Virus record (IMG/VR): IMGVR_UViG_3300045988_155859 | Strand: one strand, 5' to 3' | Source of the DNA: a virus | Taxonomy: Duplodnaviria > Heunggongvirae > Uroviricota > Caudoviricetes | Length of the DNA stretch: 48,404 nucleotides | In this document: positions 3,320 through 43,838 of the stretch, piece by piece | Position numbering within the stretch: the stretch's first letter is position 1 | Layout: the number at the start of each line of letters is the position of its first letter | The notes under the pieces: generated by a model | Told to the model about the DNA's origin: nothing | The model's database searches: none | Seen by the model: only the letters and a program-made list of their open reading frames with translations | Program-made: the position numbers and the translations under genes

Positions 3320-3340
3320 TTGTCGAGACTCCATGTGTTT

Positions 3341-3444
3341 GGTTATATAATTCTATAAATCTATATTTATAGAACGAGGTAAGCATAACCAACTTTTTGG
3401 CGGATGAAAAGCGTTTTATATAATTATATAAATCTATAATCATG
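3341..3444. repeat. AT-rich iterated motif cluster upstream of parF (candidate centromere/operator)
   Basis: Two blocks, TATATAATTCTATAAATCTATATTTATAGA and TTTTATATAATTATATAAATCTATAATCA, immediately upstream of the parF start. Confidence 0.55.
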
Positions 3445-3469
3445 TAAGCGGGCGTTAGCCCGCTTTCAG

Positions 3470-3844: not shown

Positions 3845-3879
3845 GCGTAGCCTCTTTTATACTTTTACATGTTGTCAAA

Positions 3880-3894
3880 ACCACAAAATGTGGT
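3880..3894. promoter_or_regulatory. Operator-like palindrome ACCACAAAATGTGGT
   Basis: Perfect ACCACA-N3-TGTGGT dyad between the cI stop and the next minus-strand gene. Confidence 0.55.
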
Positions 3895-3936: not shown

Positions 3937-4593
3937 TCATAACCAGTTGACAACACTAACTACGCGGCCAAGAACTTTATAACGCTTAAATTCCTCGTTA
4001 TTCAGATGCTTAGTGTTCATTTCAGCATCCCTTTCGGTTGACAGCATAACAGCATTGTCACCCGGTATGACTCTACAGTGCCTCAAAACAACCAGGCCAT
4101 TTCTGTCTTCAAGGGCATAGATCCCCTCATGAATCTCTGTATCGTCTGTATTAATCAGGACTTGGGAGCCTGGGGATATTGTTGGTGACATTAACTCATC
4201 GTTGCTCTGGAGAACTGACAGAGACGATGGGTTGATGTTCTTGCTTCGTAGAATCTCCTGTTCTATCGCCAGCACTGGCTTTTCTCCGGCGTGCGATGCT
4301 ATGTCATTTTTTATAGCTACAAGCCCAGGAATAACAGGAGCGTTAGTATTCTGGGGTGGGAACGGGTTATCTGTTAAGCACGCGATATAAGGCGCTGATG
4401 CTTTCAGGGCGTGCGCGATTTTCTTGATGGCAGGTATAGATGGTTGTCTTAATCCGGCCTCATAGTTCTGCAAGGTGCTTAAGCCTATTCCAGTGACTTG
4501 CTGGAGATCTCCGGCAGTCATGCCGGATTGTTTCCGTAGAGTCTGAATGCGCAGACCTATTTCTTTCTTGATGTTCTCGTCGTTGCTTTTCAT
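3937..4593 (-). CDS. cI: CI-like repressor (N-terminal HTH, C-terminal LexA/S24-like domain)
   Basis: 218 aa: N-terminal HTH region (GMTAGDLQQVTGIGLSTLQNYEAG), linker, then a C-terminal domain with conserved Ser and Lys candidates. Divergent from the Cro-like gene across an operator-rich intergenic region. Confidence 0.8.
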   Translation of the reverse strand: MKSNDENIKKEIGLRIQTLRKQSGMTAGDLQQVTGIGLSTLQNYEAGLRQPSIPAIKKIAHALKASAPYIACLTDNPFPPQNTNAPVIPGLVAIKNDIASHAGEKPVLAIEQEILRSKNINPSSLSVLQSNDELMSPTISPGSQVLINTDDTEIHEGIYALEDRNGLVVLRHCRVIPGDNAVMLSTERDAEMNTKHLNNEEFKRYKVLGRVVSVVNWL

Positions 4594-4630
4594 GTCTCAT
4601 CAATCGTGAATGGTGGGTTATTTATACATT

Positions 4631-4645
4631 ACCACATTTAGTGGT
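4631..4645. promoter_or_regulatory. Operator ACCACATTTAGTGGT
   Basis: ACCAC-N5-GTGGT dyad in the cI-cro intergenic region. Confidence 0.6.
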
Positions 4646-4712
4646 TTTCACATGGTAAGACGAGAGGTGGACCACAAATAGAAGGTTATTTTTTGTTTCG
4701 CCCATTGAAAAA

Positions 4713-4727
4713 CTCACGATATGTGGT
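4713..4727. promoter_or_regulatory. Weaker operator-like site CTCACGATATGTGGT
   Basis: Right half-site TGTGGT conserved, left half degenerate. Confidence 0.4.
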
Positions 4728-4734
4728 TTTAATA

Positions 4735-4749
4735 CCACATATCGTGGTT
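4735..4749. promoter_or_regulatory. Operator ACCACATATCGTGGT
   Basis: ACCAC-N5-GTGGT dyad just upstream of the Cro-like gene RBS. Confidence 0.6.
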
Positions 4750-4767
4750 TTAACTGGAGTTCGTTAA

Positions 4768-7287: not shown

Positions 7288-8355
7288 ATGAATAAACAAG
7301 TAATTATTTCTGACTGGATCAACAACCCTAACAGCCTGTTAAGCACTGATACTGGCTACCTATTACGCCATGTTAATGGTCGTATGGTCAAAAGCGATGA
7401 GCACGAAACCTTTTTCTTTGTTGAAGACGATGGGCGTATCTATGAGGATGGTTACTCTTATGAAGCCCAAACTGGTTGTATCCCTGCGGAGCTGGTGGAT
7501 GTAACAGAAGATCTGCGCAAAGCATGGCTTGAACAGCAGCAGCGCGGAGATGATTACGTAAACACCTATCAGGAACGCCAGAACGCGCGTCTTGCCCGAT
7601 ATATTGCTCGTGCAGAAAAAGCCAGAAAAGAAGGTGCGGTAGCGCATAAGCGAGCGCATGACCTGTTGGATGTGATCCCGTTAGGCCAGCCGATTTTAGT
7701 TGACCATTATAGCGCGAAAGGCCATCGCCGCCGTTTGTCTAAAGCTGATGCGTTATTCAGAAAAGCGTTTGTTGAATGCGAAAGTAAAGCATCACACTAC
7801 GAGAGCAAAGCCGCAGGTGTTGGTCGTAATGGAATTTCGTCTGATGATCCTGATGCGCTATTTAAGTTGCTTCGTAAGCTGCAAGGCTGCATGAAGTCAC
7901 ACGTCAAAATGAAGGCCGCAAATAAGGCCATTCGCAAATACAAAAAAGACCAAATACAGCAGCTTTCTGCATTAATCGATCTCAGGTTTACAGAAAGCGA
8001 AGCCAAAGAGTTACTGGCCGGAGATTTCTGTGGGCGCATCGGATTCCCTTCATACGCACTGAGCAACAATAACGCCGAAATCAAACGACTACAGAGCCGT
8101 ATTAAGGAGCTTGAATCGGTCAAGTCTGTAACAGGAGCACAGCGCGAAGAATACGACGGCTTTTCTATGGAGATAGATCCAGAGGATAACCGCATCCTGT
8201 TTTATTTCCCTGGCAAACCAGAGGCAAACATTCGTTCGCTGCTTAAATCACGCGCCTTTAAGTGGAGTCCAACCCGTAATGCATGGGTTCGCAAGATTAC
8301 TCCAAACGCCCTGGCTGATGCCCGATATCTGAAAGAATCGCTATTGAAAGCCTGA
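7288..8355 (+). CDS. DUF3560-like protein
   Basis: 355 aa with GQPILVDHYSAKGHRRR motif, which I associate with DUF3560; first gene downstream of cassette copy A. Confidence 0.45.
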   Translation: MNKQVIISDWINNPNSLLSTDTGYLLRHVNGRMVKSDEHETFFFVEDDGRIYEDGYSYEAQTGCIPAELVDVTEDLRKAWLEQQQRGDDYVNTYQERQNARLARYIARAEKARKEGAVAHKRAHDLLDVIPLGQPILVDHYSAKGHRRRLSKADALFRKAFVECESKASHYESKAAGVGRNGISSDDPDALFKLLRKLQGCMKSHVKMKAANKAIRKYKKDQIQQLSALIDLRFTESEAKELLAGDFCGRIGFPSYALSNNNAEIKRLQSRIKELESVKSVTGAQREEYDGFSMEIDPEDNRILFYFPGKPEANIRSLLKSRAFKWSPTRNAWVRKITPNALADARYLKESLLKA

Positions 8356-9081: not shown

Positions 9082-9702
9082 ATGAAAGAGCGCGGCATGA
9101 TTTTTAATGATGCGATGGTCAGGGCCATCCTCGAAGGCAGGAAGACGCAGACTCGTCGACCTGTAAAAAATGTCAGGGCCGATAACTGCCTGGTTATCCG
9201 TAAACCGACAAAGAAACGCAATGGTGTCTATACCCACGTTATGGATGCACCGGAACATGGTTTATGCCCGTTCGGTAACGTTGGTGATCGCATATGGGTC
9301 CGTGAAACATTCAACGCTTTTTGGCTGGATAACGATGTCATTCAGGAAATCAAAGATGGTGTCTCTCTGGCTTCTGAACTGTGTGATTACAAGGCTGATT
9401 ACTCAGATAGTAGCAAGCCAGCTGAGGGCTGGACCCCGTCGATTCACATGCCGCGCTGGGCTTCACGTATTTTGCTGGAAATTACCGACGTGCGTGTGGA
9501 ACGGCTGCATGACATGAGCGAGGCAGATGCTAAAGCGGAAGGCGCATCTCCGGCGACGTACAAGATTACACCGCCGGAAGCTGTTTATCGCGTTGGCTTT
9601 GGTGATATCTGGCGCGGTATTTACGGGCAAGAGAACTGGCTATCTAACCCGTGGGTATGGGTAATTGAGTTTAAACGTATTCAGGGGGCAACCAGTGAGT
9701 AA
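9082..9702 (+). CDS. ASCH/PUA-like domain protein (putative)
   Basis: MIFNDAMVRAILEGRKTQTRR N-terminal motif; start moved to the ATG at 9082, which has a GGAGGAG RBS. Confidence 0.4.
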   Translation: MKERGMIFNDAMVRAILEGRKTQTRRPVKNVRADNCLVIRKPTKKRNGVYTHVMDAPEHGLCPFGNVGDRIWVRETFNAFWLDNDVIQEIKDGVSLASELCDYKADYSDSSKPAEGWTPSIHMPRWASRILLEITDVRVERLHDMSEADAKAEGASPATYKITPPEAVYRVGFGDIWRGIYGQENWLSNPWVWVIEFKRIQGATSE

Positions 9703-27713: not shown

Positions 27714-28057
27714 TGAACTCCTTCAAAGAGGTTATAGCGCAAGATATTTCTGCAATATTCCTCAATGAAAAAGAGTTTGCCGATACATATAACATAGACG
27801 GCAAGGATATCCTTGCCGTTATTGATACAGACCTTATTCATGAGCGGAATAAACGCTCATATGCTGAGTTTGCAGAGGGAATAAATCAGGGGCAAATAAT
27901 ATTATTTGTTTCAAGAAAAGATTTTCCTGTTCTCCCTGTCAAAGACCAGTCAATGAAAATCAACGGTAAAAATTATATTGTTGATGAAGTATCAGATAAT
28001 GTTGGTGTATTGGAAATAACTCTCACTGTTAATACTAACAGAGGAATGCCGATTTGA
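27713..28057 (+). CDS. Putative head completion / head-tail joining protein
   Basis: 114-aa ORF in the connector region; assignment by position only. Confidence 0.3.
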   Translation: MNSFKEVIAQDISAIFLNEKEFADTYNIDGKDILAVIDTDLIHERNKRSYAEFAEGINQGQIILFVSRKDFPVLPVKDQSMKINGKNYIVDEVSDNVGVLEITLTVNTNRGMPI

Positions 28058-34280: not shown

Positions 34281-35271
34281 AACGCTTTTTGATGTTATAT
34301 ATCAGAATGTAAATATTACCGCTCATATGTCACCTGATGTTTTGTCAATGTCTTATACAGATAATGAAGATGGTCAGGTCGATGATATTTCTATTATATT
34401 AAAAAATGATGATGGGAAATGGTCTGGAGACTGGACACCTAAAAAGGGTGATTTTATTGATTTGAGCTTTAAGCCTATAAATCAAATCGTCCTTGAGTGC
34501 GGGAAATTCCAGGTAGATGGCATAACTTGCTCTGGACCACCTTCTGTGGTTGAGGTAACTGCTGTTTCTGTTCCTGTTTCATCAGGCATTAGACGTGATT
34601 TAAAAAGTAATGCATGGGAAAAAACAACTCTTAAAGATATAGCAACTTCTATAGCTAAATTAGCTAACCTTGAACTGTTGTTTCTTATTGATGGTGATAG
34701 TAATCCATATTATGCGCGTGAAGATCAAATGGAGGAAAGCGATTTAAAATTTCTCCATCGACTTTGCCAGGATGAAGGGTTGTCGTTAAAGGTCACTGAT
34801 AGCCAATTAATAATATTTGCTCAAGAGATGTTTGAGCAAAAAGATCCTATCGCTACGCTTACGTTAGGTATTGATGAGATAATCAGATATAGCTTTAGCA
34901 CACAATCTACAGATTTGTATAAAAGTTGCACGTGCAAATATCGCGTACCTAAAAAAAGAAAGTCGCTTTCGTATACTTGGGTAGATCCATCCGTAGAAGA
35001 AGGGTCGAATCTTAAGATAAGAAAACTGGTAGCTAATTTAGATGAAGCAAAACGTAAGGCAAAGGCTGCTTTGCGGCTTAAAAATAGATATCAAAATACC
35101 GGATCTTTAGTATTGGTTGGAGACACCAGATTGGTAGCTGGTGTAACTATAAATCTGGAGGGATTCGGTTCATTTTCTGGAAAATATCTTATATCGAAAG
35201 CTGTGCATTCAATTGGGACTAGTGGTTATACCACCTCGATTGATGTCCGAAGAGTAATTAATGGGTATTAA
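34270..35271 (+). CDS. Tail/baseplate hub protein (P2 gpD-like)
   Basis: GTG start; 333 aa; position between X and the spike gene. Confidence 0.5.
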   Translation: MLRKTLFDVIYQNVNITAHMSPDVLSMSYTDNEDGQVDDISIILKNDDGKWSGDWTPKKGDFIDLSFKPINQIVLECGKFQVDGITCSGPPSVVEVTAVSVPVSSGIRRDLKSNAWEKTTLKDIATSIAKLANLELLFLIDGDSNPYYAREDQMEESDLKFLHRLCQDEGLSLKVTDSQLIIFAQEMFEQKDPIATLTLGIDEIIRYSFSTQSTDLYKSCTCKYRVPKKRKSLSYTWVDPSVEEGSNLKIRKLVANLDEAKRKAKAALRLKNRYQNTGSLVLVGDTRLVAGVTINLEGFGSFSGKYLISKAVHSIGTSGYTTSIDVRRVINGY

Positions 35272-42391: not shown

Positions 42392-42806
42392 AAGATAATC
42401 ATGTGACCAATTATTGTAATAATTTTAATGGTATGTTTCTACTGGCTATCCAGCGTGTCTGATATCCAGTAACAAATCGTCAACACGGGTGCAATCAAAT
42501 AGTGAGTGTTAAGACTGACCACTTATTACCAGGTATGAGTGGCCAGCATTAAATCAGAACAGCCCTTTAACTGAACTGGCCGCGCTGTTAAGGGATGATG
42601 TCACCTTATCTTTGAAGCCGGACAGCATATTGCTGAACGATGAGTTTACCGCAGGTTTCTGGCTGGGAATCATTGACTGGAGTTAGGCCAGTAGTATGAT
42701 GCTCGCAAAACGAGATCCAATTTAGATCCTTTTACTGGTGGATTATCGTTCGATCAGTGAGAGACTTCGTGCATGACCGAAAGTGTTGTGGTAGAGTTCT
42801 CTTAAA

Positions 42807-42821
42807 ACCACGTAACGTGGT
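42807..42821. promoter_or_regulatory. Operator-like palindrome ACCACGTAACGTGGT upstream of repA
   Basis: Same ACCAC-N5-GTGGT dyad as the sites in the cI-cro region. Confidence 0.45.
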
Positions 42822-42861
42822 TATGATTGTGGGTGTCTGGTTGGAAAGTGACCAGATATGG

Positions 42862-42975
42862 AAACAAAAAGCCCGCAGATAAATCTGCGGGCTTCTTGCG
42901 ACATCCACGGAAAACCAACAACAACAATCCATGGGCGCCTCGACAACTCCCATTATACGTTGGTTTTCCGTGGAC
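42862..42975 (-). ncRNA. Candidate CopA-like antisense RNA over the repA leader
   Basis: Minus-strand terminator hairpin (11-bp stem AGCCCGCAGAT/ATCTGCGGGCT, 42870-42893) followed on the minus strand by a T-run; a 13-bp long-range inverted repeat (42904-42916 with 42962-42974) in the leader. Boundaries approximate; no promoter identified. Confidence 0.35.
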
Positions 42976-42989
42976 GCAAGAGCGAACAT

Positions 42990-43838
42990 ATGGATAGACC
43001 AATGCCGTCTCTACGTTCAGCTTACGTTTGTAATTTGTCGCCGGAGTTCCAGCCTCCAAAGCACCATACGCACAAGCTGCCGCTGGTGTTATCTGATGCT
43101 TTACAGCGCATTAATGGGCGTGATCTTACGTGTGAGGTTGCGTTCTACGTTAATCAACCGTCAGAGCGGAAGCGCCGGATAAACGAGCATCGTCGTCGGG
43201 CGATTAATGCTGTGATCGCTGCGATTTTGCACCATGTAAACATCATTTCTAAGCGGGTTCTGGCTAGTGCTGAGGCGTTGGCTGATTTTTGCGGCCTGTC
43301 TACCGTATCCGAAGCTGGGAACAAGTCTATAACGCGCTGTACAAGGGCGTTGTCGCAACTGAAAGCGTTAGGTTTTATTGATTATGAACGTCGCTGGGAT
43401 CGGGTGAATAAACAGTATTGGCCAGCGAAAATAGAGATTCGTGATCAACTGCTGGAAACCGTTGGTATTACTGAACAAGCATGGAGACGTGCGGTTAGCC
43501 AGAAACTTAATTACTTCAATGCGAAGAATAGCGAACGGCTTAAAAAAGCGATAACGGAGGCTGATTATAAGCGTATTGTTATTCAGGAGCAGATGGAGAA
43601 TGTATGGCGTCAGAGGAAGACGGCCAGAGAGATAAAGGCAAAACAGAAAGCAGCGGAGAGAGCTGCGCGTCTTGTTCGGGAAAAGGGAGAGGCCGAACTT
43701 CGTCATCAAATCACCAGAGAGGTTAGTCAGGAATTTGCTGATGGCATGTATCCTGGTGCTGACCTTGCATATTTACGATCCCTCGTTGAGCAGCGTTATA
43801 ACAGGTTAAGAAAGACCTGGAAATCACTCCAACATTAA
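42990..43838 (+). CDS. repA: Replication initiator RepA (IncFII RepA1-like)
   Basis: ...RRAINAVIAAILHHVNI...CGLSTVSEAGNKSITRCTRALSQLKALGFIDYE... parallels R100 RepA1 as I recall it. Start set at the Met where the similarity begins; the frame is open upstream to 42858. Confidence 0.75.
   Translation: MDRPMPSLRSAYVCNLSPEFQPPKHHTHKLPLVLSDALQRINGRDLTCEVAFYVNQPSERKRRINEHRRRAINAVIAAILHHVNIISKRVLASAEALADFCGLSTVSEAGNKSITRCTRALSQLKALGFIDYERRWDRVNKQYWPAKIEIRDQLLETVGITEQAWRRAVSQKLNYFNAKNSERLKKAITEADYKRIVIQEQMENVWRQRKTAREIKAKQKAAERAARLVREKGEAELRHQITREVSQEFADGMYPGADLAYLRSLVEQRYNRLRKTWKSLQH

Follow-up and report, generated by a model that had tools for sequence, protein, structure and literature searches.

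Introduction

Phage-plasmids have to reconcile two replication regimes, and to our knowledge detailed descriptions of how this is done exist for few models (P1, N15). In phage P1, the C1 repressor acts at many dispersed operators, some of them concerned with replication-related functions; the plasmid replicon (repA/oriR) is autoregulated, while C1 controls a separate lytic replicon and ban. The replication protein of N15, RepA, is large and multifunctional. In N15 and phiKO2, two operators that overlap the repA promoter are bound by the repressor CB, with the result that repA is repressed and copy number reduced (PMC4997575). Among IncFII plasmids, R1 has two promoters for repA, of which the upstream one is constitutive and the downstream one, PrepA, is stronger and kept about 90% shut by the repressor CopB; the antisense RNA CopA limits translation (PMC5717011).

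Here we consider a repressor operator-like dyad upstream of the repA gene of a further phage-plasmid. The window, by which we mean the whole 48.4-kb stretch of DNA analysed, was the subject of an initial annotation that suggested action of the phage repressor, CI, at the replicon. Comparative analysis of the sequence supports this idea: the site matches a model of the switch operators, is conserved, co-varies with those operators and adjoins a conserved promoter-like element, and the computational tests capable of overturning the operator idea all came out in its favour. It is very probable that CI restrains plasmid replication as well.

A link between the prophage repressor and repA, as proposed here for the window CI, is shared with N15, phiKO2 and PY54. 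However, the RepA of N15 is unrelated to the IncFII RepA of the window and, whereas N15 has an operator pair, OL1/OL2, between cB and repA and within the immunity region, the window has a single operator some 10 kb from cI, in a portable IncFII-type module with predicted antisense-RNA control. The window also differs from the telomere phage-plasmids N15, phiKO2 and PY54 in being a circular plasmid and in its contractile-tail virion type. The combination of an IncFII RepA with an operator about 10 kb from cI thus suggests N15-like logic outside the N15 family. The repressor–repA link as such is known from N15 and phiKO2; what appears to be new is its presence at an R1/IncFII-type replicon with a predicted antisense RNA. 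Phage P1 resembles the window in having one immunity repressor with operators scattered across a plasmid-prophage genome, the difference being that in the window the plasmid initiator itself appears to be a target. We found no paper on the window's phage-plasmid family or on its repressor–repA link; those found on phage-plasmids together with IncFII deal with P1-like and SSU5-like elements.

Results and Discussion

The phage-plasmid and its repressor

The window is a circular phage-plasmid, complete or nearly so. Its genes include those for head, contractile-tail and lysis proteins, ParA partition, a toxin–antitoxin pair and an anti-repressor (47-1057), as well as a CI-like repressor, a divergent early operon from 4768 and an IncFII-family repA. 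The replication region is 99-100% identical to that of around 60 plasmids of 46-52 kb in PLSDB, whose hosts are E. coli, E. albertii, E. fergusonii and K. aerogenes; the 48.5-kb plasmid of the quality-control strain E. coli ATCC 25922 is among the close matches. The Yersinia phages vB_YpM_39/41/44, isolated as infectious virions, share the repA module at 98.5-99.3% identity, and further family members occur in Salmonella, Citrobacter, Klebsiella and Yokenella. The family is common: its repA control region is present in 71 of 5,426 complete E. coli genomes, on a plasmid every time.

The cI gene (3937-4593, minus strand) encodes a protein of 218 residues in which Pfam recognises an HTH_3 domain and a degenerate S24-like C-terminal domain (E = 0.002 for the latter), and which matches 'transcriptional repressor' and 'CI-like repressor' in PHROGs. 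It is the presumed ligand of the ACCAC-N5-GTGGT dyads discussed below. Its structural relatives are generic XRE-type HTH domains only, so that solved structures say nothing about its specificity. At the place of the catalytic serine CI has D-E-L-M, and relatives too have no Ser there (Ala or Leu nearby). The apparent lack of the self-cleavage serine and the presence of an anti-repressor gene are both points of resemblance to N15; like CB, CI is probably incapable of self-cleavage and, by analogy, induction probably runs via the anti-repressor.

Annotation of the window revealed no replicative helicase or initiator besides RepA, so RepA may drive lytic replication too. The sole hint of another phage-encoded replication function is a secondary match of a DUF3560 protein in the early operon (7288-8355) to a PHROG labelled 'primase' (E = 3e-37, residues 173-351). 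Upstream of parA, at 3335-3460, repeated TATAAATCTATA and TATATAATT motifs flank two promoter-like sites; the arrangement resembles that of a partition site or par operator.

Copies of the operator motif in the window

The dyad upstream of repA lies at 42807-42821 (ACCACGTAACGTGGT) and reads ACCAC-GTAAC-GTGGT. The initial annotation placed it about 170 bp before repA, and its end is indeed 168 nt upstream of the ATG at 42990. That we take this ATG as the real start matters to the figure, since RefSeq (PGAP) begins repA at 42858 to give a product of 326 residues; the 44 additional codons cross a terminator and stem-loop (see below), and their frame is broken by indels in other lineages. The ATG at 42990 is conserved in position across lineages and corresponds to position 2 of the Pfam profile. 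The gene (42990-43838, plus strand) accordingly encodes 282 residues of the IncFII RepA family (PF02387, E = 8e-44, residues 9-275).

An exact scan for ACCAC-N5-GTGGT finds five copies in the window, at 3880, 4631, 4734, 34536 and 42807. Dinucleotide shuffling gives an expectation of 0.01, none of 100 shuffles reaching five, and uniform base composition one of about 0.05 per window; both values are lower than the 0.1 or so chance copies estimated originally. The previously noted dyad downstream of cI, at 3880-3894, is confirmed by the scan; it lies between the cI terminator and the genes for a 124-residue ORF and parA, and is kept in all lineages. Three dyads had been ascribed to the cI–cro gap (4594-4767). 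Two of these are exact, namely 4631-4645 on the cI-proximal side and 4734-4748, but in place of a third there is a copy with two mismatches at 4713-4727 (CTCAC-N5-GTGGT), and at 4671 a half-site stands alone. The copies at 4713-4727 and 4734-4748 form a pair adjoining cro (4713-4748), with centres 21 bp apart.

As well as recovering the known sites, the scan adds a fifth that the initial annotation had missed. This copy, at 34536-34550, is inside a tail/late gene, has poor flanks and a poor spacer and is absent from Salmonella and from every other lineage; it is probably a chance or lineage-specific occurrence. It is also the only coding copy, where many such copies had been named as grounds for doubting the operator idea. 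Equally, 34536 shows that an exact match of the arms by itself proves no function, and it speaks for the explanation that the repA-proximal dyad, too, is a chance match or a decaying, functionless relic.

To go beyond the arms, a weight matrix of 23 nt was built exclusively from immunity-region sites of six elements from five lineages, with the repA sites excluded. In a scan of the window the highest scores are those of 3880 (30.7 bits), 4734 (30.0), 42807 (28.4), 4713 (25.2), 4631 (23.6) and 1544 (21.3), after which the next score falls to 12.3. The best score per shuffled window averaged 10.1 and did not exceed 20.7 in 200 shuffles. The repA-proximal dyad thus ranks third among all window positions, while 34536 is outside the top 20. 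As its extended form AAACCAC..GTGGTTA illustrates, the repA site has the A-rich and T-rich flanks of the switch operators as well as their spacer preferences.

When one mismatch is allowed, four further sites are found, among which only that at 1544-1558 (ACCACATAGCGTGGG) resembles the extended motif. Its score is just above the highest of the shuffle maxima, counterparts are present in relatives, and it is a probable further CI operator. The dyad comes directly after a terminator and beside a TTGACA, about 300 nt upstream of genes for a 63-residue ORF and the anti-repressor, and the minus strand around it (1260-1620) is rich in hairpins and terminators. This looks like a second, CI-controlled immunity region governing the anti-repressor. 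The operator at 3880 likewise abuts a TTGACA (minus strand, 3873-3894), upstream of the 124-residue ORF and parA. It is centred about 10-12 nt upstream of this -35 element, a geometry more suggestive of activation than of repression, and no convincing -10 was found for the TTGACA.

Conservation of the repA-proximal site

Of the exact copies, that at 42807 alone is both outside the immunity region and kept in all lineages. Across five diverged lineages, in which CI is 60-66% identical, both arms are invariant and the spacer varies. Three Salmonella plasmids, for example, are 69% identical to the window in the cI region and 77-78% in the control region, and each contains exactly three exact dyads: one upstream of repA, one downstream of cI and one in the cI–cro gap, where there are also two one-mismatch copies in each plasmid. 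The same pattern of dyads is seen in elements from Citrobacter amalonaticus, Klebsiella aerogenes and Yokenella regensburgei, with CI 61-63% and RepA 81-83% identical. Spacers at the repA site read GTAAC, GTTGT, GATGT or GATGC between constant arms. Polymorphisms within E. coli and within E. albertii also spare the dyad.

In six aligned control regions from lineages A-C, all 10 arm columns are invariant, compared with one of the five spacer columns and 52 of the 134 leader columns (39%). Ten invariant columns would be expected by chance with a probability of about 8e-5 if columns were independent, given that 61% of the neighbouring columns vary. The site was found in every family member examined, the phages isolated as virions included. 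These conservation data, along with the expectation of only 0.01-0.05 copies per window, effectively exclude chance or decay as the origin of the 42807 dyad despite the precedent of 34536, and we regard that explanation as scarcely credible.

Conserved arms could also be explained if the palindrome were a hairpin in the leader RNA or a site for another protein, such as RepA or a host factor, its likeness to CI operators being coincidental. Any DNA dyad is, after all, a potential hairpin. Yet the minimum-energy fold of the leader transcribed from promoter P1 (see below) does not contain the dyad as a hairpin of its own, and the fit to the operator model extends beyond the stem to the flanks and to the spacer, which would form the loop. 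As for RepA, exact and one-mismatch scans find no copy of the motif downstream of repA, where the IncFII origin and RepA sites are expected. The most divergent relatives provide a further test of this explanation.

Co-variation in a divergent lineage

Lineage D shares the gene order of the window but its RepA is only about 60% and its CI 30% identical. No relatives of this kind were found in PLSDB or among species-representative genomes; IMG/VR yielded them, and the sources used were a Citrobacter freundii contig, several Logan/SRA assemblies and IMG/VR contigs. Sites in the lineage D switch region are placed equivalently to those of the window, most of them with GTAGT/ACTAC arms and a minority with GTGGT. 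Examples are AACAC-ATTTT-GTAGT, ACTAC-AAAAA-GTCGT, ATCTC-GAATT-GTAGT and TTCTC-AATAT-GTAGT. Neither ACTAC nor GTAGT appears as an arm among the operator sites gathered for lineages A-C.

The lineage D site homologous to 42807 reads ACTAC-AAAAC-GTAGC. It has changed symmetrically in both arms, towards the variant typical of the lineage D switch operators. Since both arm types are found in lineage D, the co-variation represents a shift of preference, not a clean swap. With a matrix made for lineage D, the repA site is the top non-immunity match in most of the lineage D loci scanned, scoring 16.1 against 12.2, 10.2 or 8.0 for the runner-up; this matrix was derived from 15-mers pre-selected for a GT[AG]GT arm and is therefore partly circular. 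An exception is locus L030, where a pair of non-immunity sites at 1452 and 1492 scores 22.3 and 15.8, equal to or above the repA site; these are probably a further operator pair.

The comparison thus supports the view that, where the specificity of the repressor has shifted, the repA site has changed in step with the operators. The replacement of C-G by T-A in lineage D would also be compensatory in an RNA stem, but it produces exactly the arm variant of the lineage D switch operators, a match that a hairpin or the site of another protein would leave to coincidence. Taken with the observations above, this makes that explanation improbable, if somewhat less so than chance.

A promoter-like element adjoining the candidate operator

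Two promoter-like elements precede the dyad. The upstream one, P1 (42673-42700, plus strand), is a sigma-70-like promoter, TTGACT-16-TATGAT, with 10 of 12 consensus matches. Its -10 is conserved in lineages A-C and its equivalent in lineage D is TTGACG-16-TAGAAT. The second, P2 (42769-42797, plus strand), is the predicted regulated promoter of repA and consists of a -35-like GTGCAT at 42769-42774, TG at 42789-42790 and a -10, TAGAGT, at 42792-42797. The general form of the block is GTGCAY-N14-TGnTAGAGT with a 17-nt spacer, and the dyad follows after 10 nt. TGnTAGAGTT is invariant in nine aligned control regions from lineages A-D, with TGCTAAAGT (TAAAGT) in its place in sub-lineage L035, and GTGCAY is conserved 17 nt upstream of it in the same four lineages. 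Within lineages A-C, 22 of the 31 columns of the block are invariant.

P2 resembles a promoter of the extended -10 type whose -35 is weak. We treat it as a prediction only, since a generic consensus promoter scan gave no call, and the conservation of the block could have another cause. Its predicted start, at about 42804, puts the operator at approximately +2 to +18. TATGAT immediately after the dyad (42822-42827) was considered as the regulated -10 but reads TAAGTA or TAAGAA in the Yokenella, Citrobacter amalonaticus and Klebsiella lineages; TGnTAGAGT is preferred for that reason.

Given these observations, we think it likely that the 42807 dyad is a genuine CI operator and that P2, at whose start it lies, is a second promoter of repA, under regulation. 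From the sequence comparisons we infer CI binding, P2 activity, repression as the direction of control and an effect on copy number. Against this reading, repA has just one such operator, and cooperative pairs are the rule in classical switches.

It could also be that 42807 is a real site for a switch protein but one with a different main job, as a Cro target, as an anchor for looping to the immunity region 10 kb away or in activation. The evidence shows only that the operator motif is shared and tracked, which would be compatible with such roles. Lambda-type Cro proteins share operators with CI, and the operator at 3880, just upstream of its TTGACA, has the activation-like geometry described above, so that CI may not be a pure repressor. 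On the other hand, the 42807 dyad is directly downstream of the sole promoter-like element conserved in all lineages, a position typical of repression. Activation would call for a promoter some 40 nt downstream of the dyad centre, but none is conserved there, the region 42825-42861 being poorly conserved overall (10 of 37 columns invariant). In the case of Cro, the phiKO2 protein does not bind the repA operators (PMC4997575). We therefore judge a different main role to be unlikely, though less so than a hairpin or the site of another protein.

Two GATC (Dam) sites are located just after P1, at 42714-42728. Two or three such sites are kept after P1 in all lineages despite the drift of their surroundings (equivalents are present in loci L003, L012, L017, L019 and L024), and the cluster may tie repA transcription to methylation, or to hemimethylation after replication. 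Control of this region by LexA was also considered, but dropped as the window scan shows no LexA box near repA; the single CTGT-N8-ACAG of the window is at 28026.

The predicted antisense RNA and the comparison with R1

Between the promoters and repA, the minus strand from 42978 to 42860 looks like the gene of a replication-control antisense RNA, complementary to the repA leader and made up of a stem-loop and an intrinsic terminator. The stem-loop with terminator, 115 nt in length, has a predicted folding energy of -68 kcal/mol (z = -7.65), and the stem of the terminator shows two-sided changes between lineages. The RNA's own promoter, identified by eye, has 8 of 12 consensus matches. An Rfam scan of the control region gave only sub-threshold, terminator-driven matches (Thr leader, CsrC); with neither CopA nor any other antisense family recognised, structure is the sole ground for calling the RNA. 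No tap-like leader peptide could be established in the repA leader. An ATG at 42931, considered as the start of a leader peptide or of repA itself, shares the repA frame in lineages B and C but not in E. coli.

The layout is reminiscent of the IncFII plasmids R1 and R100. RepA belongs to the same Pfam family, there are apparent tandem promoters with a putative repressor site at the downstream one, and a stem-loop and terminator antisense RNA gene, predicted in the window, lies between the promoters and repA. The differences are that the window has no copB, that the gap between P1 and P2 is only about 100 nt, that the repressor site matches the CI operators and that the antisense RNA has no match to the Rfam CopA family. 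The absence of a copB-like ORF applies to the whole interval from P1 to repA. With a probable CI operator at the downstream promoter of an R1-like layout, CI repression of P2 is the mechanism that we propose.

A possible circuit

The preferred reading, CI acting as a repressor at P2, would work as follows. repA would be read from the tandem promoters P1 and P2, of which P1 is strong and presumably constitutive. A CI dimer at 42807-42821 would cover about +2 to +18 and so block either initiation at P2 or escape from it; bound CI might also be a partial roadblock for transcripts from P1. The predicted antisense RNA would limit translation of RepA from any mRNA made. In the plasmid-prophage state CI would shut P2, leaving the supply of RepA to P1 under antisense control and copy number low. 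P2 would open in the absence or upon inactivation of CI, as when the element enters a naive cell, when copy number has dropped or when the anti-repressor brings about induction; RepA would then rise, aiding establishment or lytic amplification. CI would then fill the role that CopB has in an R1-type circuit, with an outcome paralleling that of CB at the OL/repA region of N15.

More tentatively, CI may have replaced CopB altogether as governor of an R1-type replicon, with one RepA/oriR serving both plasmid maintenance and replication bursts. We regard this extension as possible, though doubtful. Maintenance would correspond to CI being on and the antisense RNA limiting, bursts to CI being off and P2 open, so that a single molecule, acting on a portable module, would be the switch between lysis and lysogeny as well as the switch in copy number.

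If CI does gate a repA promoter, this would explain how a phage came to domesticate an IncFII replicon lacking a CopB of its own. Immunity, incompatibility and copy number would be predicted to be linked, and the system would be a simple one to test, with one operator, one repressor and one mini-replicon. The N15-style coupling of immunity to replication would also have arisen independently a second time, which would point to a design rule for phage-plasmids in general.

Mosaicism and relatives of the replicon

Conservation of the replicon module sets in at about 42645. On the left of the module the window has an acetyltransferase gene, but elsewhere the place is taken by a hin/pin invertase (ATCC 25922 and the Yersinia phages), an acyltransferase, a glycosyltransferase or Mig-14. 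The replicon module and its operator behave as a portable cassette. The 96 nt preceding 42645 match the 3' end of P88-like phage tail genes, marking a mosaic junction at 42549-42645.

Some lineage D loci differ in the initiator region itself. In L016, L017 and L021 (9516-10834) two tandem RepA-like ORFs follow the control region, the first of 162 residues with a weak IncFII_repA match and the second of 277, and in L029 and L030 the only RepA-like stretch beside the control region is about 30% identical to either RepA. The Citrobacter freundii locus, L017, additionally has a perfect LexA-box-like CTGT-N8-ACAG (CTGTACAAAAAAACAG) at around 9088-9103, some 60 nt upstream of the P1 -35.

Finally, a conjugative plasmid of the VirB type (L018, 8968-9745) encodes a RepA that is 63% identical to that of the window and has no such dyad. 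Two paralogous genes for XRE-type HTH proteins are located immediately before repA instead; these may encode dedicated transcriptional regulators, at a place for which the phage-plasmids have nothing but a CI operator.
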